From a bacterium (lineage in GTDB: Bacteria; Patescibacteriota; CPR2; UBA1875; JAJYID01), in contig JAUSJO010000002.1 of NCBI GenBank assembly GCA_030647205.1, positions 113,112 to 177,111 on the forward strand: a stretch of 64,000 nt of DNA, written 5' to 3'. This document shows positions 8,993-63,162 of the stretch, in pieces (the first letter of the stretch is position 1; each line of letters begins with the position of its first letter). A program made the translations under genes and the position numbers. The notes beneath the pieces are model-generated. The model was not told the origin of the DNA. It ran no database searches and was given only the letters and a program-made list of their open reading frames with translations.

Positions 8993-9022
8993 GTCATTAC
9001 CGTACTGAACCTAGTTCAGCAT
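8993..9022 (+). repeat. GTCATT-type hairpin repeat (CTGAAC-cta-GTTCAG)
   Basis: Member of the GTCATTC hairpin family, immediately upstream of 200-bp repeat copy 1. Confidence 0.5.
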
Positions 9023-9048
9023 AAACTCCGGCGAGAAGTCAGTTTCTA

Positions 9049-9264
9049 AATAATTTCCACTTTTTTAGAAAAAGTGGAGTAAAAATTGCGGCTTAGACGG
9101 CATCTTAAAAGTGTCGGATTCTAATTTACTTCAGGTTTGAAAAACCGGACTCCTTCCAGTCGGCCTAAAGGCTAATCGGTCTTTTCAAATCTTCATCAAA
9201 TCTTATCCTCGCTTTTCGATCCGATAGCCGCAAGAGAGCTCCCTTTGAAAAAATCATGCCGGAT
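9049..9264 (+). repeat. ~200-bp intergenic repeat element, copy 1
   Basis: Starts with the palindrome CCACTTTTT-TAG-AAAAAGTGG and ends CCCTTTGAAAAAATCATGCCGGA. About 93% identical to copy 2. Confidence 0.85.
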
Positions 9265-9315
9265 TAAATACAATTGAGGCTGTAATAATTTATTGAAATC
9301 TATTATAATAGCACC

Positions 9316-11391
9316 ATGGCAAGGCATAGAAAACCAGGCAGGCCCAAGGGGTCTACAAATAAAGGGAAAAAAGTCGAACCAACACTAAACCCGAAAATAG
9401 TCGGAGAGATAGTTGCGGTTGGGCTTTTTATTGTTGCGGTAATTCTTTTTGCCGGGGCATTTAACTTTGGCGGGAGATGGGCACTGGCCCTCTTTACAAC
9501 TTTTAGAGATATTTTTGGCTTTGTTTCTTACCTTATGCCATTCATCTTTATTGGTGTCGGGGCAGGACTTTTCTTCCCTGAAAGATTTCCGGTCAACAAA
9601 ATCTCTGCATCCGGGTTTGGCCTTTCCATTATATCTCTTTGCGGGATGTCCCAGATAATTTTCAGCGGACTAAAAAAAGACGGTGGCGGAGGGATGCTTG
9701 GCTCGCTGCTGGAAACGCAGATTTTAAAAATATTTAACTCTCCTGTTTCTTTCCTAATATTTACGGCTACCTTGATTATCGGACTTTTACTTGCTACTGA
9801 CACCTCAATCCGAGATCTTTTTGCACTCTTTAGAAATCAAGAAGAAGGCGAGGAGAAGAAGCCGAAAGAACATATTAAGATTCATGAGGGAGTTGCGGTA
9901 GCAAAAAACGTTTCCGATAAATTTAAGCCTGAGCCAAAAGAGCCGGAAGTAATGATGGTTGGTGACGATAAGGACTGGAAACTGCCGTCAGTTGATTTGC
10001 TTGAGGATACGACTACAAAAGCGGATAGCGGAAATGTGACAGAAAATGCAGCTGTCATCCAGGAGACTCTGGGAAAGTTTAACATAGATGTTGCGATGCG
10101 CGACGTAAATGTCGGGCCAACTGTAACGCAGTATACTTTAAAGCCCAGTGATGGAGTAAAGCTTTCAAAAATTACAAATCTTGACCGGGACCTAGCTCTT
10201 TCTCTCGCCGCTCATCCTATCCGTATTGAAGCACCAATTCCTGGGAAGTCTCTTGTCGGGGTTGAAATACCAAATAAAAAGGCAGCTATAGTTAGACTTA
10301 AAAATATTCTTACGAGTGAGACTTTCAAAGGGCGCCGTTCTAAATTATCAGTCGTTTTGGGGCTAGATGTTTCCGGTCATCCGCAGATTGCCGACATAAC
10401 AAGGATGCCACATCTTCTCATCGCCGGTTCTACCGGTTCCGGTAAATCTGTTTCCATAAATGCGTTACTGCTCAGTCTTCTCTATCAGAATTCACCCAAT
10501 GAGCTGAAACTGATACTAGTTGATCCGAAACGAGTGGAACTTTCTTTATATAATGACCTTCCTCATCTTCTCGCTCCAGTTATAGTTGAGCCTGAGAAAA
10601 CTGTGTCGGCGCTGAAGTGGGCGATTATCGAGATGGAAAGAAGGTATCAGCTTCTTCAATCGGCAGGGAAAAGAAACATTGTCGACTTTAACGCCATCAA
10701 AGGCAAGGAAGGCATGCCTTATATCGTAATTGTGATAGATGAGCTGGCTGACATAATGGCTGTAGCATCGAAGGAAGTTGAAGGTTTGATTTGCCGACTG
10801 GCGCAAATGGCTCGTGCCGTTGGTATCCACCTGGTTCTTGCGACACAGCGCCCATCAGTGGACGTTATTACCGGGCTTATCAAGGCGAATATTGTTACCC
10901 GTATAGCTTTCGCCGTAGCTTCTCAGGTTGACTCTCGCACAATTTTGGATCAGTCGGGAGCCGAAAAGCTCCTTGGAAATGGTGACATGCTTTTCACTTC
11001 AGCCGAATTCTCCAAGCCGAAAAGGATACAGGGAACGTTTATTTCAGAAAAAGAAGTCAAATCTGTTACAGACTTCGTTAAGTCAAATGGGAGTCCTGAA
11101 TATAACAAGGAAGTTCTGGAGCAAAAGCTTGGCGGGGTTAAGGGCGGTGACTTTGATGTGCCTGATGACGATCTTTTCCTTGATGCAGTCGACTGTGTGA
11201 TACGCTCAAACAAAGCATCCTCATCGCTTCTTCAGAGACGACTGAGAATTGGCTATGCCAGAGCGGCGCGGTTGCTTGATTTACTGGAAGAGCGCGGAGT
11301 GGTCGGACCGGCAGATGGCTCAAGGCCTAGAGATGTTTTAATCAGTGATATATCAGAGATAATTGACGAAAAAGAAGAAGTGGAGATCTAG
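9316..11391 (+). CDS. ftsK: DNA translocase FtsK/SpoIIIE
   Basis: N-terminal TM segments, Walker A GSTGSGKSV, C-terminal gamma-domain-like winged helix. Confidence 0.9.
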   Translation: MARHRKPGRPKGSTNKGKKVEPTLNPKIVGEIVAVGLFIVAVILFAGAFNFGGRWALALFTTFRDIFGFVSYLMPFIFIGVGAGLFFPERFPVNKISASGFGLSIISLCGMSQIIFSGLKKDGGGGMLGSLLETQILKIFNSPVSFLIFTATLIIGLLLATDTSIRDLFALFRNQEEGEEKKPKEHIKIHEGVAVAKNVSDKFKPEPKEPEVMMVGDDKDWKLPSVDLLEDTTTKADSGNVTENAAVIQETLGKFNIDVAMRDVNVGPTVTQYTLKPSDGVKLSKITNLDRDLALSLAAHPIRIEAPIPGKSLVGVEIPNKKAAIVRLKNILTSETFKGRRSKLSVVLGLDVSGHPQIADITRMPHLLIAGSTGSGKSVSINALLLSLLYQNSPNELKLILVDPKRVELSLYNDLPHLLAPVIVEPEKTVSALKWAIIEMERRYQLLQSAGKRNIVDFNAIKGKEGMPYIVIVIDELADIMAVASKEVEGLICRLAQMARAVGIHLVLATQRPSVDVITGLIKANIVTRIAFAVASQVDSRTILDQSGAEKLLGNGDMLFTSAEFSKPKRIQGTFISEKEVKSVTDFVKSNGSPEYNKEVLEQKLGGVKGGDFDVPDDDLFLDAVDCVIRSNKASSSLLQRRLRIGYARAARLLDLLEERGVVGPADGSRPRDVLISDISEIIDEKEEVEI

Positions 11392-12354
11392 ATGGCGCCT
11401 GCTAAGTTTATAAGGACAACGATTTCCGAAAGGGAATCTCTGGGTGAGAAGCTGGCGAAAAAAAGAAACTCGCTTCATTTAGATGTGAAAGATATTGAGA
11501 AAGCGATAAAGATACCGGCGCGTCATATTAGGAATATTGAAGATGGCAACTACTCAAAGCTTCCGCCTGATGTTTATACGCGAGGATTTATTAAAAACTA
11601 CTCGGCATTTTTGGGGCTAAACTCAAAAAAGACTTTGAGTGATTACGATAAAGAAAGAGGCTTAGAAAAAAGGGTTAAGCTGGTTAAAAATCCAGCACCG
11701 AAAGTTAAGCCGACTCTCAAAAAACCGAGAATGGTTATCACTCCAAAAAGACTCATCCTTATAGGCTCCTCTCTTTTAGTCTTTGCGGTCCTTGTCTTTA
11801 TTGGCTGGCAGATAAAAATTCTGACAGCACCACCGACTCTAAGTGTTAACAGTCCGGCCGACAACTCAAATGTCACTGATGATTATGTTTACGTTGAGGG
11901 TAAGACTGACAGAGAAGCTGATATCTACATCAATGACGTCAAAATCGGTACCGATGATAATGGTATTTTTAAAGAAAGGGTTAGTCTACAGGACGGAGTG
12001 AATATTTTAAATATTAAGGCGAAAAATAAAATGGATAGGGAAACCAGCGTTGAAAGAAAGATATCAGCAAAACTTCCTCTGACAACAGCGACGGTTGACA
12101 GGACTATCTATCCTTTAGAGTTAAAGGTGGTGATAGGACCAAATCCGGCAACAGTACAGATAGTGCGCGATGGAGAAAAGTTGAATGTATCAGGAGTTAT
12201 GCTTGCAGGCTCGACACAAGTTTTTTATGCTAAAAATGACTTTGTAGTCTCAACAAATAATGCCGGCAGCACAAAAGTTACCCTAAATGGCAAAGATATG
12301 GGTCCGATGGGCAAAGAAGGTGAAGCGATTAAAGATAAAAAGTTTAGTAAGTAG
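11392..12354 (+). CDS. RodZ-like HTH membrane protein
   Basis: N-terminal HTH (IRNIEDGNYSKLPPDVYTRGFIKNY) typical of RodZ, single TM, periplasmic C-terminal domain. Confidence 0.6.
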   Translation: MAPAKFIRTTISERESLGEKLAKKRNSLHLDVKDIEKAIKIPARHIRNIEDGNYSKLPPDVYTRGFIKNYSAFLGLNSKKTLSDYDKERGLEKRVKLVKNPAPKVKPTLKKPRMVITPKRLILIGSSLLVFAVLVFIGWQIKILTAPPTLSVNSPADNSNVTDDYVYVEGKTDREADIYINDVKIGTDDNGIFKERVSLQDGVNILNIKAKNKMDRETSVERKISAKLPLTTATVDRTIYPLELKVVIGPNPATVQIVRDGEKLNVSGVMLAGSTQVFYAKNDFVVSTNNAGSTKVTLNGKDMGPMGKEGEAIKDKKFSK

Positions 12355-12363
12355 GAGATAAAA

Positions 12364-12867
12364 ATGGCCAAAGATTTTTCATTTGATATAGAGAGCGACT
12401 TCGACATGATGGAGATGACGAATGCGCTCGATCAAACACAGCGCGAGATCTCTCAAAGATATGACTTTAAAGGGACAGACTCATCTATTGAATTTGACGA
12501 GGATAAAAAAGGATTGCTACTTCTTGGCGACAGCGATTACAAAGTTGACGCCATGATAGATATTATAGAGTCAAAAATGGTCAGCCGCGGGCTGTCACTC
12601 AAAATTTTAGACAAATCTAGTCCGAAAGAGTACGCTTCGGGCGACAGAACCCGCCAGAAAGTTACCTTCAAAAAAGGCATGGATCAGGAGAAGGCAAAAA
12701 AAATTACGAAAAAAATTCGTGAGGTCTATCCGAAAGCTAAAGCGCAAGTTCAGGGAGATACTATCCGGGTTTCCTCGTCCTCAAAAGACGATTTGCAGGG
12801 GGTAATGTCGATGCTAAAAACTGATGAAGCGATCGATATCCCACTTCAGTTCACGAACTATAGATAA
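12364..12867 (+). CDS. yajQ: YajQ family nucleotide-binding protein
   Basis: MAKDFSFDIESDFDMMEM...YDFKGTD N-terminus characteristic of UPF0234/YajQ. Confidence 0.8.
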   Translation: MAKDFSFDIESDFDMMEMTNALDQTQREISQRYDFKGTDSSIEFDEDKKGLLLLGDSDYKVDAMIDIIESKMVSRGLSLKILDKSSPKEYASGDRTRQKVTFKKGMDQEKAKKITKKIREVYPKAKAQVQGDTIRVSSSSKDDLQGVMSMLKTDEAIDIPLQFTNYR

Positions 12868-12876
12868 TTTGAGACG

Positions 12877-12906
12877 AAAGGGCCCCTACTGGGGGCCCTT
12901 TTTGCT
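12877..12906. terminator. bidirectional rho-independent terminator
   Basis: GGGCCCC-tact-GGGGGCCC flanked by an A-run and a T-run, between convergent genes. Confidence 0.65.
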
Positions 12907-12924
12907 TTGGAGAAAGCAATTTGT

Positions 12925-13101
12925 TTACGTTACAGAAAGATGAATTTCGATTATTCCCTTTTTGACTGCTTCATTTAGGATCTCTTCGGCCACTTCTTTG
13001 GGGAGGTCTACATCAATTGCAGGTACCTTCGGCTTAACATTTTCCTTACTTTTTCTGGTTGGTTTACGGGTTGGCTTGTTGGATTTTTTAGTGCGTGCCA
13101 T
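12925..13101 (-). CDS. small basic protein (MARTKKSNKPTRKPTRK...), unknown function
   Basis: Strong GGAGG RBS before the internal ATG. 58 aa, Lys/Arg-rich N-terminus. Confidence 0.4.
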   Translation of the reverse strand: MARTKKSNKPTRKPTRKSKENVKPKVPAIDVDLPKEVAEEILNEAVKKGIIEIHLSVT

Positions 13102-13308
13102 TTCCCCTCCTATATTTTCTGCTTTCTCCAAATTGTTTTGTGTACATTGTTCTGCAAATGTTAGGAAAAGCATTTTAGCATAGTTATTTTGCTGAGTCTT
13201 TAGGCAAGAACCCAAATAGGATAGAGAGGCATTGAAATAGCCGTAAAGGACTTGACAGAGAGATAGTTTTATTATAATATATACTAACCTTAATCATGAA
13301 AGCACACG

Positions 13309-14079
13309 TTGGATAGAAGGCAAAACAATTATATAAAGAAAACATATCGGCTGCTCGTCTTCGCGGCATTTTTAAGTGTGGTTGGCTTTGCCTATACTGC
13401 CTACAACGCGCGAAATGATTTAAGAAAACAGAGTGATACTGAGGTAGCAACACCGAAAAAAGAAGTGGTCCAGTCTGATACTCCTCAAGTCAAGGGAGAT
13501 ACGGTTCAGATCAAAGACTCGGCTTCGTTGCCTGTTCCATATACTTTGCAGGGACCTCTCAACAATTTAAATGTTCACGAGGAGTCTTGCGAAGAAGCGG
13601 CGGTTCTGATGTATCATTATTTCCTTGAAGGTCAGCTGACATTTAATGGAAGCACGATTATTACTCCTCAACTTGCCAATGATGAGATGCTCAAAATGAA
13701 GGCATGGCAGGTAAAAAACTATGGCAAAGAGCCTGATCTTTCAATCGAGCAGCTAGGACTTTTTGCTCAGCAATATTACGGTTACAAGTATAAAACTTTC
13801 AAAAATGTTACCAAGGATGATATAAAGCGCGAAATCTCAGCTGGACACCCTGTGTTAGTCCCAGTGATGACACATAGTTTAAAAAATCCGATGTATGGGC
13901 CTCAAACGACGTATCATATTTTGGTAATCAAAGGCTACAATGCTCAAAATGTCATCGCCAATGATGCCGGTATTCGCGGTGAAAGCATCCAGTACTCTTG
14001 GGATACAGTTTTCTCGGCCATTGACGCCCAAACCCCGAAAATGGGACAAGGGCGAGAGATGGTTATTTTGACGAAATAA
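13309..14079 (+). CDS. membrane-anchored protein, possible C39-like cysteine peptidase domain
   Basis: TTG start after a TATAAT box. N-terminal TM. EESCEEAAVLMYHY resembles a papain-like C39_2 catalytic Cys region. Weak. Confidence 0.4.
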   Translation: MDRRQNNYIKKTYRLLVFAAFLSVVGFAYTAYNARNDLRKQSDTEVATPKKEVVQSDTPQVKGDTVQIKDSASLPVPYTLQGPLNNLNVHEESCEEAAVLMYHYFLEGQLTFNGSTIITPQLANDEMLKMKAWQVKNYGKEPDLSIEQLGLFAQQYYGYKYKTFKNVTKDDIKREISAGHPVLVPVMTHSLKNPMYGPQTTYHILVIKGYNAQNVIANDAGIRGESIQYSWDTVFSAIDAQTPKMGQGREMVILTK

Positions 14080-14083
14080 ATTT

Positions 14084-14113
14084 AAAACCCGACATGCATG
14101 CATGTCGGGCCCA
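14084..14113. terminator. perfect palindrome hairpin CCCGACATGCATGCATGTCGGG, possible terminator
   Basis: 22-bp perfect palindrome after the stop. No clean T-run on the + side. Confidence 0.35.
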
Positions 14114-14349
14114 ATGTCACATCTCCTTTCGTAACACCCCAGCTCTTTAAAACTCCTATAGAGTGAGGCTGAGAATTGGTACTACTTGGTCGATGCAACC
14201 TACAAGTTTTTGTGCTGCAAATGGATAGAGGTTCTGCATAAAGCAATAACGCCTACTAGCTGACGTTTGACATATCCCTCTCCTGATCAGTGGAGATGCA
14301 GTTGTTACTGTAAGAAGATTTTAGCAGATTACGTTTATGATGTCAACAA

Positions 14350-14477
14350 TTTTGTATACTATTATCTTTTGTAAAGTTAAGCACGATAGTAGTATACAAA
14401 ACATAAAAAACCATTGACCTGTGGATAAGTTATAGTATACACTTATGCTATACAAAATAATTTTAATGTATACTACC
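14350..14477. promoter_or_regulatory. cluster of TTTTGTATACTA / TAGTATACAAAA motifs; candidate LexA (SOS) operators over the lexA promoter
   Basis: The 12-mer occurs in both orientations at 14350-14361 and 14390-14401, with partial copies at 14434, 14447 and 14467. TTGACC (-35-like) lies at 14414. Confidence 0.4.
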
Positions 14478-14495
14478 TAAAGAAGTGAGGGCAAA

Positions 14496-15134
14496 ATGGC
14501 GAAAGAATTAACTGAAAAACAAAAGAACGTACTGACTTGGATCAAGGAATCCGTTAAGGAAACCGGCGATGCACCAACAGTACGCGAACTACAGGTCAAG
14601 ATTGGCTGTTCTTCACCGATGGGTGTTGTTTCTCACCTTCGAGCGCTTGAGCAAAAGGGTCAGATTCGAAGAATGGGCAACCAGGCTCGTGGAATAGTTG
14701 TTTTGGATGGTCGAAGTATCCGTGAAAGTCATGATAGTGACGTTGTAAATGTGCCTTTGGTTGGTAATGTTGCCTGTGGTATGCCGATATATGCCGAAGA
14801 GTTGATCGAAGATTGGATCCCACTATCTACAAAACTAGTTAAAAGAAGCCAAGACGTTTTTATGTTAACGGCAAAAGGCGACTCTATGGACCAGGCCGGT
14901 ATAGAAGATGGCGACTACATCATTTTTAAAAAGCAAGATACGGCAGAAAATGGGGACAAAGTAGTAGTTTTGATAGGAACAGAAGCAACTGTGAAAAGGT
15001 TGAATACCACAAAAGGAAAAGCTATGTTTGAGCCGATGAGCACAAACAAAGAGCACAAAGTCCTGGTTCCGGAAGAAGGAACATTTATGGTGCAGGGCAA
15101 AGTTGTCGGGGTTATAAAAAATTTTAAAGAGTAA
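14496..15134 (+). CDS. lexA: LexA repressor (S24 peptidase)
   Basis: N-terminal winged HTH, cleavage-site region VACGMP, Ser/Lys dyad motifs GDSM and TVKRL. Confidence 0.9.
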   Translation: MAKELTEKQKNVLTWIKESVKETGDAPTVRELQVKIGCSSPMGVVSHLRALEQKGQIRRMGNQARGIVVLDGRSIRESHDSDVVNVPLVGNVACGMPIYAEELIEDWIPLSTKLVKRSQDVFMLTAKGDSMDQAGIEDGDYIIFKKQDTAENGDKVVVLIGTEATVKRLNTTKGKAMFEPMSTNKEHKVLVPEEGTFMVQGKVVGVIKNFKE

Positions 15135-15149
15135 AGCAAGGAGTGAGTC

Positions 15150-15542: not shown

Positions 15543-15582
15543 TTATCAATAAATATTAAAAGAAAAGAGAGGGAACGAAAAA

Positions 15583-16587: not shown

Positions 16588-16625
16588 TAAAGGTATCCCG
16601 TCTCCATTATCCCTTACTCCTCTCT

Positions 16626-16977
16626 GTCATTCCCGCGGAGGCGGGAATCTAGACTATAAAATATGAATTCATACTATGTTTATATGATGGCTAGTGATAG
16701 AAATGGTACCCTTTATATTGGGGTAACATCAAATCTCATAGGAAGGGCATTTGAGCATAAAAATGGCGCGTATGGTGGTTTTACCGCAAAGTATAAAGTA
16801 GATAAGTTAGTTTACTTTGAGGAGACAACAAGTATAGAAGAAGCCATCACGAAAGAAAAACAGCTAAAGAAGTGGAATCGTCAATGGAAAATGAGGCTTA
16901 TTGAGGACTTTAATCCCAAGTGGGAGGATTTATCCTATAACATTGCTTGACTAGATCCCCGCCTCCGCGGGAATGAC
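16626..16977 (+). mobile_element. GIY-YIG mini-nuclease cassette bounded by 27-bp inverted hairpin repeats, inserted between recA and recX
   Basis: GTCATTCCCGCGGAGGCGGGAATCTAG at 16626-16653. Its reverse complement (1 mismatch) lies at 16951-16977. Confidence 0.5.
16663..16950 (+). CDS. GIY-YIG nuclease family protein (stand-alone URI domain)
   Basis: YYVYMMASDRNGTLYIGVTSNLIGRAFEHKNG GIY-YIG motif, 95 aa. Confidence 0.85.
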   Translation: MNSYYVYMMASDRNGTLYIGVTSNLIGRAFEHKNGAYGGFTAKYKVDKLVYFEETTSIEEAITKEKQLKKWNRQWKMRLIEDFNPKWEDLSYNIA

Positions 16978-16998
16978 AATTTTTAAGGTATCAATATT

Positions 16999-17604
16999 AT
17001 GAAAATAACTAAAATAGAAAAACAAGCCAAACGAGATAGATACAACATCTATCTCGATGGCGTTTATGGATTTTCAGTAGCCAGCCGTGTCCTTATGGAC
17101 TGTTCTTTAAAAGAATATCAGAGTTTAACTGACAAACAGATTGAGGAGATTAAAAACTCTGATGCTGAGTATAAAGCGTATAACCGGGCGATTTTGATTC
17201 TTTCCTACCGGGCGAATACGGAAACTGAGTTACGAAAGAAATTGTTGAAAAATTTTGATGAGCAGAATATAAACAAAGTTATTGTTAAACTTAAAAACCA
17301 GGGGTTTATAAACGATGCAGACTTTGCTGAGAGATATATTGCGCAGAGTAAAAAAGGAAAAAGAATGACTAGCCTTGAGCTTTTGAAAAAAGGAGTTGAT
17401 AAAGAAACGATTAACTCACTGATTTCAGAAAGAGAAGATGAGACAGAGTTCAAGAACGCTCTAAACACGGCTGAAAAAGTGATCAAAAAACATGGGGATA
17501 AGGATTTACAATTTAAGAAACAAAAACTCTACGAGAACTTGGTTCGTAGGGGTTTTGCTTATGACGTTATTAAGTTGGTGATAAAAGAGATTCTAGAGAG
17601 ATAG
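16999..17604 (+). CDS. recX: recombination regulator RecX
   Basis: Three-repeat helical RecX-like sequence, adjacent to recA. Confidence 0.8.
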   Translation: MKITKIEKQAKRDRYNIYLDGVYGFSVASRVLMDCSLKEYQSLTDKQIEEIKNSDAEYKAYNRAILILSYRANTETELRKKLLKNFDEQNINKVIVKLKNQGFINDADFAERYIAQSKKGKRMTSLELLKKGVDKETINSLISEREDETEFKNALNTAEKVIKKHGDKDLQFKKQKLYENLVRRGFAYDVIKLVIKEILER

Positions 17605-17627
17605 CCCCTAAGAAATAAAAAATCCCC

Positions 17628-23428: not shown

Positions 23429-23488
23429 GTCATTCGACTCTGAGTTGAGCTCATCGCTCAGGCTCAAAGAGCGGAGGCGGAAATCCAG
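23429..23488 (+). repeat. GTCATTC-type composite hairpin repeat
   Basis: GTCATTCGACTCTGAG...CTCAG...GAGCGGAGGCGGAAATCCAG, immediately upstream of repeat copy 2. Confidence 0.5.
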
Positions 23489-23495: not shown

Positions 23496-23708
23496 AATAA
23501 TTTCCACTTTTTTAGAAAAAGTGGAGTAAAAATCGCGGCTTAGACGGCATCTTAAAGTGTTGGACTTCAATTTGCTTCAGGTTTGAAAAACCGGACTCCT
23601 TCCAGTCGGCCTAAAGGCTAATCGGTCTTTTCAAATCCTCATCAAATTTCATCCTCGCTTTTCGATCCGATAGCCGCAAAAGACTTCCTTTGAAAAAATC
23701 ATGCCGGA
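23496..23708 (+). repeat. ~200-bp intergenic repeat element, copy 2
   Basis: Near-identical to copy 1 across ~210 bp. Confidence 0.85.
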
Positions 23709-23760
23709 CGGGAGAGTGTTGTAGGTAGCAATTTACTACTAAATTGGTTAGTATCAAGTT

Positions 23761-24516
23761 ATGAAGAAACGGATCGACATTTTATTAACAGAAAAGGGAT
23801 TAGCCGAGAGTCGGACGAAGGCCCAGGCTTTTTTAATGAGTGGCCAGGTTGAGGTCGATGGGAGAAAAATAGACAAAGCCGGAACACTTGTTGATGATGA
23901 CTCCGAGATCAAGATCAAAGAAAGATTTCCATATGTTTCACGAGGAGCGCTAAAAATCCAAAAGGCTTATCAAGAATTTGGACTAGACTTTAAAGATATG
24001 GTGATTTGCGATATTGGTTCTTCAACAGGAGGATTCACTGATTTTGCACTTCAAAATGGGGCGAAGAAAGTTTTCGCCATCGATGTTGGCTACGGTCAGC
24101 TTGATCAAAAGCTTCGTGAAGATTCTCGGGTAGTTGTGATGGAAAAAACGAATTTTCGAGACATTGATGAGTTACCCGAGAAAATTGACCTCTTTGTCTG
24201 TGACGTATCTTTTATTTCACTTAAAAAAATTATCCTAAAAATTAAAGAGATTGTAGATTATAAAACACAGTGTGTTTTGCTTATAAAGCCTCAGTTTGAG
24301 GTGGGCAAAGAGGTCGCCGATAAATGCAAAGGTGTCATAAAAGACGAGGAAGTTCAGCGAGGAGTTGTAGAGGAGATTGCCAGATTCGCTGAAGACAATG
24401 GATTTCAGGTAAAGGGACTGACGGAGTCACCGATTACCGGTGCAAAGGGGAATAAAGAGTTTCTGATTTGGCTAACCCTCTCTTGTCATTCTGAACTTGA
24501 TTCAGAATCCAGATAA
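23761..24516 (+). CDS. tlyA: TlyA family rRNA 2'-O-methyltransferase
   Basis: S4 domain followed by an FtsJ-like methyltransferase (DIGSSTGGFTD). The last 9 codons are encoded by a hairpin repeat. Confidence 0.85.
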   Translation: MKKRIDILLTEKGLAESRTKAQAFLMSGQVEVDGRKIDKAGTLVDDDSEIKIKERFPYVSRGALKIQKAYQEFGLDFKDMVICDIGSSTGGFTDFALQNGAKKVFAIDVGYGQLDQKLREDSRVVVMEKTNFRDIDELPEKIDLFVCDVSFISLKKIILKIKEIVDYKTQCVLLIKPQFEVGKEVADKCKGVIKDEEVQRGVVEEIARFAEDNGFQVKGLTESPITGAKGNKEFLIWLTLSCHSELDSESR

Positions 24517-24836
24517 ATAAATTCCATGAATTCATATTATGTTTACATCACTGCGAGCCAAAGAAATGGAACGCTATATACCGGCGTAACCAATAACTTA
24601 ATGAAAAGAATCTATGAGCATAAAAACGCCAAGCCCGAAACCTTTACAGGTAAATACCTTACTAACAGATTGGTTTATTTTGAGGAAACAGCCAGTATTG
24701 AAGAAGCAATCAAAAGAGAAAAACAGATAAAAAACTGGAAGCGTAAATGGAAATTAGATTTGATTGAGGAAAATAATCCAGAATGGGAAGATCTTTATGA
24801 TAAGTTCCTGGATTCTGAATCAAGTTCAGAATGACA
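24486..24836 (+). mobile_element. second GIY-YIG cassette bounded by inverted hairpin repeats
   Basis: GTCATTCTGAACTTGATTCAGAATCC at 24486-24512 and its exact reverse complement at 24810-24836. A decayed extra copy lies at 24903-24921. Confidence 0.5.
24526..24834 (+). CDS. GIY-YIG nuclease family protein (paralogue, ~60% identical to 16663-16950)
   Basis: YYVYITASQRNGTLYTGVTNNLMKRIYEHKN motif. C-terminal DSESSSE encoded by the hairpin. Confidence 0.85.
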   Translation: MNSYYVYITASQRNGTLYTGVTNNLMKRIYEHKNAKPETFTGKYLTNRLVYFEETASIEEAIKREKQIKNWKRKWKLDLIEENNPEWEDLYDKFLDSESSSE

Positions 24837-51318: not shown

Positions 51319-51384
51319 GTCATTCCGAGCGTAGCGGAGGAATCCCTTCCCCCGTATGTCATTCCCGCAGAGACGGGAATCTAG
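51319..51384 (+). repeat. two tandem GTCATTC-type hairpins
   Basis: GTCATTCCGAGCGTAGCGGAGGAATCCC and GTCATTCCCGCAGAGACGGGAATCTAG, directly upstream of repeat copy 3. Confidence 0.55.
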
Positions 51385-51395
51385 TCTTTCTTTAA

Positions 51396-51600
51396 ATAGT
51401 ATCCACTTTTTTAGAAAAAGTGGAGTAAAAATTGCGGCTTAGACGGTCTCTCAAAGTATCGTCTGGTTTGCTCTCTCATCTTTAAAAAAATTAACTCGCT
51501 TCTCTCAAACAAAATTCTTTTTAAAGGTTCGTTTACTCCCAGACTTTCTTTTCGAGCCGATAGCCGCAAGCGAGCTCCCTTTGAAAAAATCATGCCGGAT
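51396..51600 (+). repeat. ~200-bp intergenic repeat element, copy 3 (subtype B middle)
   Basis: Same CCACTTTTTTAGAAAAAGTGG start and CCCTTTGAAAAAATCATGCCGGAT end. Middle matches copy 5. Confidence 0.85.
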
Positions 51601-51684
51601 TTCATTGCTAGCTTTTGCAATATTGGTTATAGCTATAATTCCAACAACTTGAACATTTTGGACGATTCCCTCATACTTGTTTAT

Positions 51685-53998: not shown

Positions 53999-54020
53999 GG
54001 TATTGTCACCATAATTATTC

Positions 54021-54044
54021 GTCATTCTGGCTTGTCCAGAAGCA
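54021..54044 (+). repeat. GTCATTC-type hairpin
   Basis: GTCATTCTGGCTTGTCCAGAAGCA, upstream of repeat copy 4. Confidence 0.45.
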
Positions 54045-54052
54045 TCTCTTTA

Positions 54053-54275
54053 AAATAGTTTCCACTTTTTTAGAAAAAGTGGAGTAAAAATCGCGACTTA
54101 TGGCGGCGACAAAGTGTCGGATTTCAGTTCGCTCAGGTTTGAAAAAATGAACTCGCTAGATCGCTCAGACAACATTATTTTCAAAATCTTCGTTCACTTT
54201 ATCCTCGCTTTGTCTTCGATAGTCGCATTAAGAGATCACTTGGCTCATCTTCCCTTTGAAAAAATCGTGCCGGGG
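54053..54275 (+). repeat. ~200-bp intergenic repeat element, copy 4 (divergent)
   Basis: Conserved 5' palindrome and 3' CCCTTTGAAAAAATCGTGCCGGGG. Arm variant GCGACT...AGTCGC. Confidence 0.8.
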
Positions 54276-54341
54276 AGGCCGTAAACATTTTACTTTACTA
54301 ATATATTCCATTATAGTTATAATGTTTAAAAGGAGAAAACA

Positions 54342-55927: not shown

Positions 55928-55931
55928 ATTC

Positions 55932-55967
55932 AAAGGGGCGCGATAACTATGGTTGTGCGCCCCTTTA
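55932..55967 (+). terminator. rho-independent terminator
   Basis: AGGGGCGCG...TGCGCCCCT followed by TTAAAATT. Confidence 0.55.
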
Positions 55968-56028
55968 AAATTGGCTTAAATCATGCTAAAATAGAGTATA
56001 TTTAGACTTAACTAGGGAGACAATATCT

Positions 56029-56769: not shown

Positions 56770-56863
56770 AATGTCCGTTTGAATTGTTCGAATTGTTAGA
56801 ATTGAAAAAACATCTATAACAAGCGAAGCGATCAAACAGTTATAACAATTAAAACATTTAAAA

Positions 56864-57349: not shown

Positions 57350-57405
57350 ATTGCAGTTGAAGCTTGTCGAATAAAGTTCTAAAATAAGACTAAACGGAGG
57401 GGTTT

Positions 57406-58386
57406 GTGATTGATGCAGTTCAAGAAAGGAAAACGACTCTTTCTTCTGCCTATGAAATGGGCTTGAAGCTTCTTGGCGACTCTTATAAAGAGGGAAAAAT
57501 ATTTTCATCTCTACCTAAGGCTGGTGATCCTTTTTCGGATCTTGAACTTTTGAGCGTTCTTGCTCTTACACCGGCAATGAGACAGGAGATTTTAAATAAA
57601 TATCTATACCACAGTAAAATATTTAGTCTGGCTACGACTGGTATTATGGCTTGGGTTGTAATAAATACAATGGAGGAGTTTGGGGAAAACGAAAAAGTTG
57701 GCCTAGAAAAATACTTTTCTGTTTGCGAGGAATATTTTGACAAGACTATAAATACTGACGGGATTTTGCCGACAGATTCGAGTGGAAACTGGATGCAAAG
57801 TGCTGATAGGGTCGGGGCCTTGATAGAAAATCAGGCCTATTATGCGAAAATTTTGGATGTTCTTTCTCTGCTGACCGATGACGACATGTATGAATTCAAG
57901 AAAAAAAGGCTTACAAGGGCAGTGCGGGATAAACTTGATGGTGCATATGTTTTAGATAAGAAGGATTCGATGGAAACCAGGCCAAACAACTTTATCACTG
58001 CTTTTTTAGCTCCTGAACTTTTTAAGAAGGATGATTGGCAGAAGACTTTTGATGTGGTGCTAAAGGAGGGTGAACTTTGGCAGGGCTGGGGCGGGCTTAC
58101 CACCTTAGGTCAGTCAGATCCGAGCTATAACCCTGAGCGCGATGGGGAGAGCTGGTTTTTTATAAATAATATGGCGGGGATAGTATTATCCAAACTTGAT
58201 AGTGAAAAATATGCCGATAAGATTCAGGCAATTTTAAGGTCTTCGGCAGAAAATGCCTCATGGCAGGAACACTCCGGCAGGCCCTGCGAAGTTACATTTA
58301 CTACTGACAGACAGATTAAAGTCCAGGGTCTTTATGGCCTTTCTCTTGCAACCTATATTTACCTTTATCGAATTTTGAATCCTTAA
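57406..58386 (+). CDS. hypothetical protein, possibly alpha/alpha-toroid (six-hairpin glycosidase-like)
   Basis: 326 aa, Trp-rich helical protein inserted between ruvC and ruvA. Fold assignment speculative. Confidence 0.45.
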   Translation: MIDAVQERKTTLSSAYEMGLKLLGDSYKEGKIFSSLPKAGDPFSDLELLSVLALTPAMRQEILNKYLYHSKIFSLATTGIMAWVVINTMEEFGENEKVGLEKYFSVCEEYFDKTINTDGILPTDSSGNWMQSADRVGALIENQAYYAKILDVLSLLTDDDMYEFKKKRLTRAVRDKLDGAYVLDKKDSMETRPNNFITAFLAPELFKKDDWQKTFDVVLKEGELWQGWGGLTTLGQSDPSYNPERDGESWFFINNMAGIVLSKLDSEKYADKIQAILRSSAENASWQEHSGRPCEVTFTTDRQIKVQGLYGLSLATYIYLYRILNP

Positions 58387-58476
58387 CAAGATATTCTAAA
58401 AATTATACTTCTATGTTATATTCCTAAGTAAATTTCCTTAGCACTATTTCAATTTCTATAGAAAGCGGGGACGCAC

Positions 58477-58689
58477 TTGGACGCACACAATATCGTATGG
58501 GAAGAGCGCCAGAAAGGGAAAAGGATTTTTAAATTTGGTGTTTTTCTCAACACCCTAGTTTTTGTCGTAATTGGTATCACAGACGACAAAGCAGGTCTTT
58601 GGATAGCTGCTCTTATCATGGCAACCTCCTTGCTTTATAAAGTTCACAAGGAGGTTAGGATAGCGTTCATGAGAGGGAATAATCGCTAG
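58477..58689 (+). CDS. small membrane protein
   Basis: 70 aa with two hydrophobic segments. Confidence 0.3.
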   Translation: MDAHNIVWEERQKGKRIFKFGVFLNTLVFVVIGITDDKAGLWIAALIMATSLLYKVHKEVRIAFMRGNNR

Positions 58690-59002
58690 GAGAGATAATG
58701 GATTATGGAAAGGTAGTTCTTCCGTTCATGGTTCTAGTTATTGCTGTTTTTCTCTGGATCTTGGGGCATGTGTTCTAGGATTTATAGGAAACAGGGGTAA
58801 TAAAAGGGGGCTATCATGAAACTTCTAATGTCCATCTTTAGATGTACTTCATGTTGTGAGGCTGCGAACGCTGTGGAGATAACTCTCAAACATGCTTTTC
58901 TTCTCTGGCTTTTATGGGCTTTGGTAACATTGCCGTCATTTGAGGCGGAGATGCATTGGCACTTCCTTTAGCGGGCAATGAGTAGGGGTACCCCTTAGAG
59001 AA

Positions 59003-59028
59003 AGCTCCCTGTTTTAGGGAGCTTTTTT
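59003..59028 (+). terminator. rho-independent terminator upstream of ruvA
   Basis: AAAGCTCCCT-gttt-TAGGGAGCTTTTTT. Confidence 0.6.
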
Positions 59029-59029
59029 C

Positions 59030-59045
59030 TTTTGTATACTAGAAT
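59030..59045 (+). promoter_or_regulatory. TTTTGTATACTAGAAT motif (candidate SOS operator / promoter element) upstream of ruvA
   Basis: Same 16-mer as at 60271. Core 12-mer shared with the lexA upstream sites. Confidence 0.4.
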
Positions 59046-59094
59046 TCGTTTTGGGATTCAGTTAAGATTTAGATAATATAAACGAGAATTTACT

Positions 59095-59661
59095 ATGATT
59101 GCTAGTTTGCGTGGGAAAGTAGTCCAAAAAAGAGCTGATAGCCTAGTTGTCGAGATGAATGGAGTTGGCTATAAAGTTATTTGTCCTGTTTCAGTTTTAG
59201 AGTCTGCAAAAGTTGATGACGAAATATTTTTAAATACTTACACTCATGTTCGAGAAGATATTTTGGCTTTGTATGGCTTTTTGACTGCAGATGACCTAGC
59301 GCTTTTTGAGCTTTTAATAAGCGTTTCCGGAGTTGGGCCGAAAGCGGCGGTAAATATTTTGTCTGCTGCAAGTTCTGAAAAAATTCGTAGTTCTATCCAA
59401 AAACAAGATCCAGGAATTCTTTTCTCTGTTTCGGGGATTGGCAAAAAAACAGCCGAGAAAATCGTTGTAGAACTTAAAAATAAACTTGGTGCAAGTGATG
59501 CTTTGTACGCGCCATCTTCAGAAACGGATGATCTCTATCAGGCGCTTAGCGATTTAGGATTTAAGCCGAATGAAATCAGTACTGCGATATCGAAAATTCC
59601 CGAAGATCTTGAAACGACAGAAGAGAAGCTGAAGTTTGTTTTGAAAGAGATTAAAAAGTAG
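59095..59661 (+). CDS. ruvA: Holliday junction DNA helicase RuvA
   Basis: MIASLRGKV...GVGYKV...ISVSGVGPKAA HhH motifs. Confidence 0.9.
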   Translation: MIASLRGKVVQKRADSLVVEMNGVGYKVICPVSVLESAKVDDEIFLNTYTHVREDILALYGFLTADDLALFELLISVSGVGPKAAVNILSAASSEKIRSSIQKQDPGILFSVSGIGKKTAEKIVVELKNKLGASDALYAPSSETDDLYQALSDLGFKPNEISTAISKIPEDLETTEEKLKFVLKEIKK

Positions 59662-59752
59662 TAATTTCCCCTGTTTTTTGGTAAAATTAGGAGCACTAGG
59701 AGGTCGCTCCTTTTTATTTTTGTTTTGCACATTCCAACTGAGTGGAGGGAAA

Positions 59753-60238
59753 ATGTTTGGATATTTTAACGGAGCCTGTTTGCCAGTATACTGGTTAGGT
59801 CGGTTAATGGAGATTCTAAGCAGCTTTGGCAACGAAAACGATCAAGATCTAGAAGAAGCAACACAGGCAGTAGCAGAAAGAATCGCAGATATGGTTTGTT
59901 CGCGAGGTATCCTCAATGACACTATTTGGATGAAAACTGTTAACAGCGAGTATTCCCAGAGGTTTAGTGGTTTATGTGAACTGTTGCCAACGGTTAACAT
60001 CTCAGATTGGAAAAAACTAGCTATCTGTAGAGGACTAGACAAAGCGGCTGACATAATTGAAGAAACAATAGAAACTAAGTTGAAAGAAGAGAAAACAAGG
60101 CTTATTGGCGACCATTTAACGGAAGAGTCAGAAGAGTTTCACCGTTCTAGGCATGAGGCCGAATTTCATGTTTTCAACAAACATTGTAGTAAGGTACCTG
60201 TCGTTGTTGGGATCCAAACCAGATTTTCTTATGAGTAG
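59753..60238 (+). CDS. hypothetical protein inserted between ruvA and ruvB
   Basis: 161 aa from MFGYFNGACL. Preceded by the hairpin GGAGC...GCTCC followed by a T-run. Confidence 0.45.
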   Translation: MFGYFNGACLPVYWLGRLMEILSSFGNENDQDLEEATQAVAERIADMVCSRGILNDTIWMKTVNSEYSQRFSGLCELLPTVNISDWKKLAICRGLDKAADIIEETIETKLKEEKTRLIGDHLTEESEEFHRSRHEAEFHVFNKHCSKVPVVVGIQTRFSYE

Positions 60239-60270
60239 ATGCAAGGCAAAAGGGCTCCGAAAGGAGCCCA

Positions 60271-60286
60271 TTTTGTATACTAGAAT
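60271..60286 (+). promoter_or_regulatory. TTTTGTATACTAGAAT motif upstream of ruvB
   Basis: Identical 16-mer to 59030-59045. Preceded by the hairpin GGGCTCC-gaaa-GGAGCCC. Confidence 0.4.
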
Positions 60287-60319
60287 TAATTTTCACTTTA
60301 ATGTTAATATTATCTTGTC

Positions 60320-61354
60320 ATGAAACTAGATAAAGATCACATACTAGATTCGGAAGAATTTGAGGGCGAGGAGAAGTTTGAGGAAACTCTCCGACCGAAG
60401 AAATTCTCCGAGTACATCGGACAGAACCAAGTTAAGGATAACTTGAAGATTACCATTGAAGCGGCAAAAAAGCGCAAAGAACCTATAGACCACGCCTTGC
60501 TTTATGGACCTCCTGGCCTTGGCAAAACCACGCTATCTAATGTTATTGCTAATGAAGTTGGTGTCTCCATAAAAGCGACAAGCGGCCCGGCGATAGAGCG
60601 CGCCGGCGACTTAGCGTCTATTCTCACGAATTTACAGGAAAATGACATATTATTCATCGATGAAATTCATCGGTTGAATACTGTTGTCGAGGAAATCCTC
60701 TATCCGGCGATGGAAGATTTTGTACTTGATATCATTATCGGCAAAGGGCCATCAGCACGATCGGTAAGGCTGGATTTACCAAAGTTCACGATCATTGGCG
60801 CGACAACTCGTATGGGGCTTCTCTCTTCCCCGCTTCGCGATAGATTTGGCCTGGTTCATCGATTAGAATTCTACGAGCCGGAGGATATCAAAAAGATTAT
60901 CAAGCGCTCGGCAAGCATACTTAAAATTAAAGTCGATGAAAAAGGCTCAGAGGAAATAGCCAAAAGAGCCAGAAGAACACCGAGAATTGCCAATCGTCTT
61001 TTAAAGAGGGTGCGTGATTTTGCCGAGGTGAAGGGTAAAGGAGAGATTACGGAGGATATCGCATGTCAGGCTTTGGAAATGCTTGAAGTGGACGAGGTAG
61101 GTCTTGATAATACAGATAGGACATTGCTTGAAACGATAATCCATAAGTTCAAAGGCGGACCGGTTGGCCTAAATACTTTGGCTGCGGCGACCAATGAAGA
61201 GATTGACACTATCGAAGAAGTCTACGAACCGTATCTTATCCAAATGGGATTTTTGGAACGAACTCCCCGGGGGAGAAAAGCGACTTCTCGTGCCTATGAT
61301 CATTTGAAGATAATAGAGAAAGTTAAAACAAAAGATCAGGGGAAGCTATTGTAG
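60320..61354 (+). CDS. ruvB: Holliday junction DNA helicase RuvB
   Basis: [20 protein letters not shown] Walker A, AAA+ and winged-helix domains. Confidence 0.95.
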
Positions 61355-61377
61355 TGTATAATTCTGACCTCTCTCTG

Positions 61378-61430
61378 TCATTCTGACGAAGGAAGAATCT
61401 AGATCCTTCGTGCCTCAGGATGACGAAGTA
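61378..61430 (+). repeat. GTCATTC-type hairpin repeat after ruvB
   Basis: GTCATTCTGACGAAGGAAGAATCTAG plus the complementary TCCTTCGTGCCTCAGGATGACGAAG. Confidence 0.5.
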
Positions 61431-61499
61431 GTAGCTAATGTGATAAGTAGAAAAAATCCTTTGCAATAGGAGAAAAGTCAATTATAATTTAAAACGCTT

Positions 61500-62729
61500 A
61501 TGCTTAAAAAATATTTATTCGTGGGATTCTTTTTATTTTGGGTGCTTTTGTGTCCATTTTTTGCCGTGAACTCTTCCAAAGTTTTTGCTGCGTCAAAATG
61601 TGATGGTGTCATTATCTCAGAATTTATGCCATACCCTGCATCGGGAAGCGAGTGGGTTGAAGTTTTTAATACTAATGAATACCAAACTGATATTAGTGAA
61701 TGTTCATTGGCCGACTCTTTGGATACTCCTAGCCACCGTTATGACATTCCTGATGGAACGATTGTCGAATCGAAGGGTTACTTTGTCTTTTATGACAACT
61801 TTTATCTTAATAATGACGGTCCAGACAAAGCACGGTTGTTGTCTGCCGGCAACGAAACAGTTTCTGAACGAAGCTATAACAAACCAATCCCAAAGGGCCA
61901 AAGCTATGTATTTAATGGAACTTCTTGGGAGTGGACAAAAGATGTGACCCCGGGGTTTGAGAAAAGTGCCGGCGGGACGGATACCCCTGTTGATAGCGGG
62001 AGCGGGAATACTTGCGAGGGATTGATAGTTTCTGAGCTTATGCCGGATCCTGCATCCCCGCTTACTGACGCTGATGATGAATGGATAGAGATTTATAACG
62101 AAAGTGGCGAACCGGTAAATGCCGGCGGGTGTATATTAACCGATACTCAAAAGGCAGGCTCTACTCATGAATACAAAATAGCAGGAGGGACGCTTGCGCC
62201 GGGTGGGTTTATGGTTTTTTACTCTAAGGATACAAAGATTAGTCTGAACAATGACGGCGACAATGTCAGAATTCTTTCGCCGGATAAAAAAGTGATATTT
62301 GAAACCCAGAATTATGGTAAGGCCCAAGCCGGACAGTCTTGGGCATATGATGGTGATAAATGGGCCTGGACGGCTGCTCCGACTGCGGGCGCGCTAAATG
62401 TGATAGAAATCCTCGAGGAGACTTCGGTTGCGAAAACAAGTTCGAAGAAAACAGCCTCTAATAAGCGAAAGACCACTGCCTCAAAACCCAAAACAACTTC
62501 AAAACCCGTTTCGAAAACTGCAAGTCCAAAGAAAAAATCAGCTGATGGAGCTGAGGTGCTTGGTGCGAACACTGAAGATGAGGATTCGATCCAGGGAAAA
62601 GTGAATGACAAGGTCATGGGTTATGTCCTTGTTACCCTTGCCGGAGTGCTTCTGGTCGGGTATGTTATATACATAAATAAAGATTTTATCTATGAAAATA
62701 GTATCAAAAAGTTCAGACGAGACGGTTAG
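61500..62729 (+). CDS. secreted protein with two lamin-tail-like (LTD) repeats, Ser/Thr/Lys-rich linker and C-terminal TM anchor
   Basis: Two repeats: CDGVIISEFMPYPASGSEWVEVFN and CEGLIVSELMPDPAS...DEWIEIYN. Then KTSSKKTASNKRK... and a C-terminal TM. Confidence 0.6.
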   Translation: MLKKYLFVGFFLFWVLLCPFFAVNSSKVFAASKCDGVIISEFMPYPASGSEWVEVFNTNEYQTDISECSLADSLDTPSHRYDIPDGTIVESKGYFVFYDNFYLNNDGPDKARLLSAGNETVSERSYNKPIPKGQSYVFNGTSWEWTKDVTPGFEKSAGGTDTPVDSGSGNTCEGLIVSELMPDPASPLTDADDEWIEIYNESGEPVNAGGCILTDTQKAGSTHEYKIAGGTLAPGGFMVFYSKDTKISLNNDGDNVRILSPDKKVIFETQNYGKAQAGQSWAYDGDKWAWTAAPTAGALNVIEILEETSVAKTSSKKTASNKRKTTASKPKTTSKPVSKTASPKKKSADGAEVLGANTEDEDSIQGKVNDKVMGYVLVTLAGVLLVGYVIYINKDFIYENSIKKFRRDG

Positions 62730-63141
62730 CTTAGGTCAGAAGTTAGGTGAGCAGCTTAAGGGAGGTGAGGTGGTTGCTCTTTATGGTGATCTCGGCGGAG
62801 GAAAAACGCAGTTCACAAAAGGAATTGCCAAGGGACTAGGAATAGAAGATGATATTTTCTCTCCTACGTTTGTGATTCGCAGAGATTGTAAGGGCAAAGA
62901 GTTGAGCTTGCTTCACTATGATTTTTATAGGTTTGAAGTACCGGATGAAGAACTGATTGAAAGTTTAGAAGAAGGGATAAATCCTGAAAATGTGACGGTT
63001 ATAGAGTGGGCGGAAAGAGTTGAAAAATATTTGCCAGAAAACACGATTAAAGTTGTATTCCGTTACATCTCAGAAAGTGAAAGAGAAATAGAGATTGAAG
63101 GTAATGGTTTTAGTGCTGTCATTCCGACCGACCCTACTTAA
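62692..63141 (+). CDS. tsaE: tRNA t6A biosynthesis ATPase TsaE
   Basis: VALYGDLGGGKTQFTKGIAKGLGI P-loop. C-terminal codons VIPTDPT lie within a GTCATTC hairpin. Confidence 0.85.
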   Translation: MKIVSKSSDETVSLGQKLGEQLKGGEVVALYGDLGGGKTQFTKGIAKGLGIEDDIFSPTFVIRRDCKGKELSLLHYDFYRFEVPDEELIESLEEGINPENVTVIEWAERVEKYLPENTIKVVFRYISESEREIEIEGNGFSAVIPTDPT

Positions 63142-63162
63142 GTAGCGAGTAGAGGAATCCCT
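63118..63162 (+). repeat. GTCATTCCGA-type hairpin overlapping the tsaE 3' end
   Basis: GTCATTCCGACCGACCCTACTTAAGTAGCGAGTAGAGGAATCCC, related to the hairpin at 51319. Confidence 0.5.

Follow-up and report, generated by a model that had tools for sequence, protein, structure and literature searches.

A family of short hairpins dispersed over a 64-kb window of bacterial DNA (the whole stretch of 64,000 nucleotides, nt, analysed here, from contig JAUSJO010000002.1) very probably belongs to the Ssn-related motifs (SRM), which generalise the Neisseria Transformation Sequence (NTS, or dRS3), and the two small GIY-YIG open reading frames (ORFs) among the hairpins very probably encode Ssn nucleases, with an activity predicted from their sequences. 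The system itself is known, the hairpin family having already been described in 2025 (Chenal et al. 2025, Nat Commun 16:2388, PMC11893778), and it is the host that is new. In that work the NTS consensus CGTCATTCCCGCGMAVGCGGGAATCYRG was generalised to SRM, and SsnA, a 94-amino-acid (aa) single-domain GIY-YIG protein, was reported to bind the hairpin on single-stranded DNA (ssDNA) only and in one orientation only, without binding RNA. Biochemistry with Neisseria and Wolbachia homologues indicates that Ssn binds the folded hairpin as a monomer, that cleavage is determined mainly by the three nt immediately before the palindrome, which are GTC in the NTS consensus, and binding by the C immediately after the palindrome, and that the cut falls a few nt upstream of the hairpin (Chenal et al. 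2025). The ssnA gene is typically encoded between SRM copies (NTS-ssnA-NTS), and in N. meningitidis the system trims transforming DNA, with reduced transformation as the host-level phenotype (Chenal et al. 2025).

Hairpin family and the proteins encoded beside it

The census covers the window, and loci of relatives were examined separately. Exact matches to GTCATTC alone number 15 against 8.1 expected, which is weak evidence, but the two-ended signature GTCATTC-N8-38-GAATC is found 8 times against 0.38 expected, a count reached in none of 100 shuffles; one of these matches (62583-62609, minus strand) falls within an ORF and appears fortuitous. When contexts were read one by one, the family came to 14 units at 9 sites, ten on the plus strand (8958, 8993, 16626, 23429, 24485, 51319, 51358, 54021, 61377 and 63118) and four on the minus strand (16977, 24835, 24916 and 61424). 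The original prediction of a GTCATTC...GAATC hairpin family is thereby confirmed, and its names for the neighbouring genes, rnj, recA, efp, tlyA (FtsJ/S4), the MBL gene, ruvB, tsaE and xerC, were right. All 14 units start with GTCA(T/C)(T/C), and intact ones end in GAATC or GGATC followed by YAG or CC. GTC stands directly 5' of an ATTCC...GGAAT-type palindrome and C directly 3' of it, so that the units share the grammar of the published motif, (C/T)GTC, palindrome and C-YRG. As in other SRM, they are multi-copy, enriched over chance and mostly outside genes; in the window every unit is intergenic or overlaps gene ends. Related contigs are also dense in SRM, with about 15 in 5.8 kb of one locus (L007).

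Folded as DNA, the units 16626, 16977, 24485, 24835, 24916, 51358 and 54021 and the palindrome 61377-61424 beat shuffles, with z from -2.5 to -4.3. The last of these, a hairpin of 48 nt, folds at -11.4 kcal/mol (z -4.1), which none of 200 shuffles equals, and it corresponds to what had been listed as a single stem variant, CTGACGAAGG...CCTTCG; it is instead a doublet of two units placed head to head, with one more reverse copy as its right arm, and the 8958 unit resembles that arm. In 8958, 8993, 23429, 51319 and 63118 the ends are conserved and the stems decayed or interrupted (z -0.3 to -1.4); an intact version of the long-loop variant at 8993 occurs in L007 at 1110 and in L013 at 12142. A strict perfect-stem scan returns only 5 clean copies and 1 chance match, and therefore under-counts the family.

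The hairpins at 16625-16652 and 16951-16978 fit the NTS consensus with 2 and 3 mismatches, which occurs in 0 of 100 shuffles, and the other units carry stems that differ from it. For the proteins, called Ssn-1 and Ssn-2 here, the reference SsnA was a gonococcal ORF and not the N. meningitidis protein. It was found by tblastn against a plasmid collection, at one locus in each of two N. gonorrhoeae chromosomes mislabelled as plasmids there (54% identity, E 5e-26), as an NTS-flanked 94-codon ORF with Y6, Y17 and E64 at the places where SsnA was mutated in the published work. In pairwise BLASTP, Ssn-1 is 54% identical to this protein (E 6e-37) and Ssn-2 is 56% identical (E 7e-35), the published criterion for SsnA homology being E < 1e-10 (Chenal et al. 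2025). PF01541 spans residues 4-77 of both proteins, which have no other domain and are thus single-domain proteins of about 95 aa like SsnA. The catalytic residues are kept: Y7, Y18 and E65 are invariant among the aligned Ssn proteins and align with gonococcal Y6, Y17 and E64. Ssn homologues of similar size number more than 4300. With Ssn-1 as query, a PDB sequence search returned no relative and NCBIfam only a sub-threshold group I intron endonuclease match. A literature search for the motif string and for repeats of the candidate phyla radiation brought up the Ssn paper alone as relevant.

The hairpins are not canonical terminators. None in the window is followed by a canonical T-run, as had been noted from the sequence at the outset, and none joins a GC-rich hairpin directly to such a run in the manner of an intrinsic terminator, whereas canonical terminators are clear elsewhere in the same DNA. 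A loose terminator filter lets through two SRM only, at 51361 and 54025, and the T tail of each is interrupted. At gathering thresholds, Rfam finds nothing but a tRNA-Met in the whole window, and in E-value mode nothing credible in two repeat regions, the best match being Acido-1, with 14.5 bits where the gathering score is 50. This weak match (RF01686) falls on an SRM, at 51333-51383 on the minus strand, and among the orphan hairpin 'RNA motifs' of Rfam there might be DNA repeats of SRM type.

Two further properties of the hairpin borders were observed. A pyrimidine-rich tract (e.g. CCTCTCT, CTTCTC) lies directly 5' of GTC in 16626, 24485, 51319 and 61377, and also in most SRM of L007, L013 and L019; the corresponding stretch in Neisseria, in which SsnA cuts, has been described as variable. 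Read as its reverse complement, the SRM 5' end gives ATGACA, which with a downstream TATTAT, TACAAT or TACACT makes a sigma-70-like promoter match. Such matches point out of the hairpin at 16973-17000 (plus), 51323-51295 (minus) and 61381-61353 (minus) and sit just upstream of recX and xerC, the xerC TACAAT box being kept in L013.

Cassettes and their variation among relatives

Inverted SRM of one stem type, different for the two genes, bracket each ssn gene with their GTC ends outward and form with it a cassette of about 350 bp (Table 1). In cassette 1, 16626 (plus) is paired with 16977 (minus) around the stem CCCGC-GGAG-GCGGG, and in cassette 2, 24485 (plus) with 24835 (minus) around CTGAA-CTTGA-TTCAG. 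The original prediction placed reverse copies only downstream of GIY-YIG ORFs, which does not hold for 24916 at the 3' end of ychF or for the right arm of the doublet, and it missed the forward copy just upstream of each GIY-YIG ORF by which the genes are bracketed; the hairpin-gene-hairpin architecture went unnoticed, as did the companion repeat of about 215 nt described below. We infer that each paralogue would recognise its own stem type, CCCGC or CTGAA. The order SRM(+)-ssn-SRM(-) recurs in six cassettes, two in the window, two in L013 and one each in L019 and L016, and the GTC ends face outward in 6 of 6 cassettes of this lineage.

Movement is suggested by comparison with a syntenic relative, GCA_021796415.1 (loci L013, L014 and L019). 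L013 encodes the same 95-aa Ssn in two cassettes 4.4 kb apart, and neither of these sites is occupied in the window. These cassettes are identical bar one mismatch from TCTCT/GTCATTCCCGC to GCGGGAATGAC/A (the slashes marking the GTCATTC and GAATGAC limits) and their flanks are unrelated; these sharp limits of identity point to a unit delimited at its outward-facing GTC ends. The repeated sequence begins about 5 nt before GTC, near the position of the Neisseria SsnA cut. The spacer between recA and recX is 20 nt long in L020 (RecA 99% identical, flanking DNA 88-91% identical) and 1 nt in L021. The window holds cassette 1 and its CT-rich leader at this place, and L019 a different 87-aa Ssn with CTGGC-type hairpins, for which two independent gains would be the simplest reading. 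The spacer between the MBL gene and the response-regulator gene measures 343 nt in the window against 70 nt in L013, and between xerC and comEC one SRM is orthologous in the two, whose next SRM have opposite orientations. Look-ups with EF-P and the response regulator gave only short-read contigs from the same strain, breaking off within repeats, and an exact look-up with Ssn-1 gave none. On these comparisons the cassettes behave as insertions.

An 8-nt direct repeat, AAGGTATC, at 16590-16597 and 16985-16992 brackets cassette 1 with its CT-rich leader. It has 4 copies in the window against 2 expected, and one similar stretch occurs in the empty site of L020; the pair could be a target-site duplication or chance. 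No comparable duplication is found at the L013 or L019 cassettes. Insertion into or next to genes is seen at several places: the last codons of tlyA, tsaE and ssn-2 are supplied by SRM, and in L013 a tandem SRM pair at 9342-9390 lies apparently inside a called prepilin-peptidase ORF (8988-9887), where it would be an in-frame insertion like the palindromic elements of Rickettsia. The L013 counterpart of 51319, an orthologous SRM at 14520-14600, has a GC-rich palindrome of 58 nt inserted in its loop (CCTGTCCGTCCGGCCCGCCTGCCGGACGGACAGG...).

Table 1. Hairpin units, ssn genes and companion repeats; positions are in the window unless a locus is named.
Feature	Position	Strand	Remarks
Decayed SRM, GTCACTCTTGAGTG..CGAAGGATCTC	8958..8985	+	first of tandem pair after rnj; weak DNA fold
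Decayed long-loop SRM, GTCATTACCG..CTGAACCTAGTTCAGCATAAACTCC..GAGAAGTCAG	8993..9042	+	second of tandem pair after rnj
Companion copy 1	9054..9266	+	upstream of ftsK; small hairpin and ~150-nt imperfect palindrome
SRM, cassette 1 left end, GTCATTCCCGC-GGAG-GCGGGAATCTAG	16626..16652	+	preceded by CT-rich leader; -8.9 kcal/mol, z -4.3
ssn-1, 95-aa single-domain GIY-YIG	16663..16950	+	Pfam PF01541, E 5e-16
SRM, cassette 1 right end	16951..16977	-	inverted copy, same CCCGC stem
Decayed SRM after efp	23429..23488	+	GTCATTC end, ~35-nt insertion, 3' half GCGGAGGCGGAAATCCAG
Companion copy 2	23501..23713	+	upstream of tlyA
SRM, cassette 2 left end, GTCATTCTGAA-CTTGA-TTCAGAATCCAG	24485..24512	+	overlaps last tlyA codons, just upstream of stop
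ssn-2, 102-aa single-domain GIY-YIG	24526..24834	+	Pfam; 62% identical to ssn-1
SRM, cassette 2 right end	24808..24835	-	identical inverted copy; provides ssn-2 stop codon
Third CTGAA-type SRM, long loop	24867..24916	-	3' end of minus-strand ychF; z -2.5
SRM, CCGAGCG..GGAGGAATCCC type	51319..51346	+	adjoins xerC 5' end; orthologous copy in L013
Solo CCCGC-type SRM	51358..51384	+	z -4.1; inverted copy at orthologous L013 position
Companion copy 3	51400..51602	+	upstream of comEC
Solo CTGGC-type SRM after MBL gene	54021..54046	+	z -2.8; same stem type flanks L019 ssn
Companion copy 4	54059..54279	+	upstream of response-regulator gene
Head-to-head SRM doublet after ruvB	61377..61424	.	GTC ends outward, arms meet at CTAG, no gene
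Long SRM variant, CCGACCGAC..GTAGCGAGTAGAGGAATCCC	63118..63161	+	overlaps tsaE end; near-identical variant in L007 at 5776
Companion copy 5	63178..63380	+	upstream of tsaB-like gene
Bacteroidota small-hairpin loci	L003 5260-5560, L006 6680-6980, L009 5370-5667; L004, L005, L010
Small hairpin heading three tandem 77-nt units	L008 3289-3485		Chitinophagaceae metagenome-assembled genome

Companion repeat and other features of the window

Five SRM (8993, 23429, 51358, 54021 and 63118) are followed by an AT-rich linker of about 11-16 nt and then by a non-coding repeat of about 215 nt, always on the plus strand. It consists of a perfect AT-rich small hairpin, CCACTTTTT-TAG-AAAAAGTGG, and an imperfect palindrome of about 150 nt closed by GCGRCT/AGYCGC. 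In a set of seven sequences, the five window copies with those of L007 and L018, 96.8% of cells are paired in the common fold against 44-58% with partners slid, and 8 pairs show compensatory changes. G-U pairs are more frequent than A-C mismatches, in favour of a fold formed by the plus strand. Compensatory changes are also seen in both helices of two diverged copies from Ca. Wolfebacteria. An SRM lies 11-42 nt upstream of the small hairpin in 9 of 9 companion instances (11-16 nt in the five window copies and L007). In L013 the orthologous spacers contain no companion, the 70-nt spacer lacking both SRM 54021 and companion copy 4, and the companion is rare in the collections scanned: a contig scan with its small hairpin gave 10 loci, with the full companion only in L007 and a diverged form in L011, and a metagenome scan gave one, L018.

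Most other loci of the contig scan are Bacteroidota elements that share the hairpin alone. There the module TTCCACTTTTTTAGAAAAAGTGGAG(C/T)AAAAATCG heads a different multi-copy non-coding element of about 300-350 nt, in Flavobacteriales and Chryseobacterium metagenome-assembled genomes (MAGs), next to PorV paralogues and other unrelated genes. No SRM upstream, Rfam match or nearby transposase was found for these elements, and their consensus fold shows no covariation. Conservation of this small 5' hairpin thus extends from Patescibacteria to Bacteroidota. The companion matches no Rfam family. It was considered as a group II intron end, an IS200/IS605 or TnpB/IscB guide RNA, a retron RNA, attC or 6S RNA, and none of these is supported by Rfam, neighbours or signatures; it may be a separate element that uses SRM hairpins. 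The closest analogy for it is given by the neisserial intergenic mosaic elements (NIME), in which dRS3 repeats flank RS elements, intergenic repeat families of 19-214 bp, and in Neisseria other mobile DNA targets dRS3 as well (Bentley et al. 2007, PMC1797815). NIME arrays were reported from Neisseria only (syntenic in N. gonorrhoeae and N. lactamica) and from none of the non-neisserial genomes (Bentley et al. 2007). Short hairpins of dRS3/NTS type interleaved with longer intergenic repeats are common to NIME and the window; in the window, however, the longer repeat is one family with a conserved fold, and the SRM stands only 5' of it, at a constant spacing.

Two observations concern other parts of the window. 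Seven consecutive ORFs of about 103-123 aa at 3918-6375 (plus), with repeated junctions (families D8 and D12), have the look of a tandem array of paralogues, and the G+C content of positions 1-4000 is 48.7% against about 35-44% in the remainder.

Proposed mechanism, alternatives and significance

Ssn-1 and RecA of the window are 100% identical to proteins of an NCBI MAG. The nearest named relatives of the window RecA are from 'Patescibacteria group bacterium' (92%) and 'candidate division WS5' (90%), and the host is an uncultivated Patescibacteria-type bacterium. Cumulative GC skew rises over the whole window, which makes the plus strand, with most of the copies, the lagging-strand template as well as the coding strand. 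This bias suggests that the hairpins would be exposed as single strands, in replication, transcription or DNA uptake, and that Ssn would act then. The cassettes probably are, or were until recently, mobile units bounded at Ssn cut positions, where cuts just outside both outward hairpins, on opposite strands, would delimit the cassette; solo and decayed SRM would be their offspring or remnants, comparable to repetitive extragenic palindromic (REP) elements. The window also encodes comEC and a type IV pilus gene set, and by analogy with N. meningitidis it is plausible that incoming transforming DNA is trimmed by Ssn in this host. A REP-like role and nuclease recognition sites tied to the GIY-YIG ORFs, both raised in the original prediction, are supported by the match of motif and proteins to the NTS/SRM-Ssn system. 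GIY-YIG homing endonucleases such as I-TevI and I-BmoI have a separate DNA-binding domain, cut double-stranded intron-less alleles and sit in introns or as free-standing phage genes. They share with Ssn a GIY-YIG catalytic domain within an apparently mobile insertion, but Ssn is a bare domain and the published SsnA cuts ssDNA beside the hairpin; of the suggestion of homing sites, the behaviour of the cassettes as insertions therefore stands and the double-stranded target does not.

Several points weigh against the assignment to the SRM-Ssn system and the mechanism built on it. The published degenerate SRM pattern, HGTCWYN(0-2)YYVSBRHN(0-5)WNVSBRGN(0-2)RNCYNB, has 0 exact matches in the window and, with one substitution allowed, 10 matches against 3.9 expected, 4 of them true copies. 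G as the first nucleotide of the loop and AT-rich stems account for the misses, the CTGAA stems lying outside the pattern; since the pattern is a heuristic made by hand from 29 genomes and not a definition, they were not treated as an exclusion. It is adjacency alone that assigns a stem type to Ssn-1 and to Ssn-2. The gonococcal NTS have their GTC ends toward the gene, opposite to those of the window, so the geometry is not universal. With a DNA difference of about 10% between the window and L020, gain and precise loss are inseparable for that pair, and replication and transcription orientation are likewise inseparable within the window. GIY-YIG enzymes are not known to join DNA, a step that insertion of the cassettes would require.

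The strongest alternative, a serious one although the odds are against it, is that the cassettes are purely selfish, a transposon or homing cassette resembling an insertion sequence, with Ssn as its nuclease, solos and doublet as non-autonomous derivatives or scars, and no function for the host. It overlaps with the SRM-Ssn reading and differs from it only in host benefit. The discrete duplicated unit with sharp ends speaks for it, as do the empty and occupied states of recA/recX with different cassettes at one site, the gene-less, REPIN-like doublet at 61377-61424, the many decayed copies, and insertions that overlap gene ends or, once in L013, lie apparently within a called ORF. It is opposed by the lack of any known strand-transfer activity of GIY-YIG domains and of a consistent target-site duplication, the AAGGTATC pair at cassette 1 being possibly chance with none at L013 or L019, and by the documented reduced-transformation phenotype of N. 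meningitidis (Chenal et al. 2025). A more specific and doubtful proposal is that SRM-ssn-SRM units are active mobile elements of a new class, in which a bare GIY-YIG ssDNA nuclease would set both ends by cuts outside outward hairpins on opposite strands and host replication or repair would finish the move, and that the SRM-linked repeat of about 215 nt would be a non-autonomous element travelling with SRM or inserting beside them.

It is improbable that the hairpins are mainly RNA-level structures of 3' ends, weak terminators or barriers to 3' exonucleases, with an incidental link to GIY-YIG. Most copies do lie just after stop codons and co-oriented with the upstream gene, 24916 (minus) after ychF included, two pass the loose terminator filter, and REP elements of E. 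coli have been reported as regulators in 3' untranslated regions. However, the hairpins lack the U-tract that canonical terminators elsewhere in the same DNA possess, and the conserved unpaired GTC and 3' C would be useless to a terminator, while they agree with what SsnA requires for cutting and binding. Copies in both orientations surround ssn, others stand upstream of xerC and within coding ends, several have kept their ends and lost the stem, and SsnA lacks RNA binding (Chenal et al. 2025). Nothing was found in favour of the RNA-stabilising structures that had been considered for these repeats, and the hairpins may have an incidental effect on transcripts. The general look of the family, short palindromes with an asymmetric conserved tail, intergenic positions and doublets, would also fit classical REPs spread by a REP-associated tyrosine transposase (RAYT, of IS200/IS605 type) or another transposase elsewhere in the genome, with the GIY-YIG genes as passengers. 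There is very little to be said for this in view of the bracketed gene, which is GIY-YIG in 6 of 6 loci of three genomes and in Neisseria. No RAYT or IS200-type domain was found among the ORFs scanned next to the repeats, a subset of the window ORFs, and no tyrosine transposase among the listed precomputed Pfam hits of genes called in related loci. The motif carries neither a GTAG nor a CGTC tag, and published work (PMC3733652) places most REPs in the super-families so tagged. The likeness to REP, RAYT and REPIN is one of organisation, with an enzyme gene between inverted short hairpin repeats that are also dispersed genome-wide, gene-less inverted doublets, and a hairpin recognised on ssDNA; the motif differs, and a hydrolytic GIY-YIG nuclease with no known joining step stands in place of an HUH/Y1 transposase with a covalent intermediate.

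Altogether, the SRM-Ssn reading places in a Patescibacteria-type MAG a system that has the hairpin-gene-hairpin layout and the many solo intergenic copies of its published counterpart. It differs from that counterpart in its two paralogues, each with its own stem, one of them AT-rich and outside the published pattern, in its outward GTC ends, in the CT-rich tract before GTC of many copies, in five SRM joined to a longer structured repeat, and in the cassette duplication and presence/absence polymorphism documented for this lineage. The first description of the Ssn family dates from 2025, and the window extends the system to an uncultivated host with a reduced genome and DNA-uptake genes. Two natural enzyme-hairpin pairs in one genome, one with a GC-rich and one with an AT-rich stem, would provide substrates for studies of how so small a protein reads its site. 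Moreover, the sharp ends, empty sites and gene-less doublet bring sequence evidence to bear on the published suggestion that hairpin-gene-hairpin units may be mobile.

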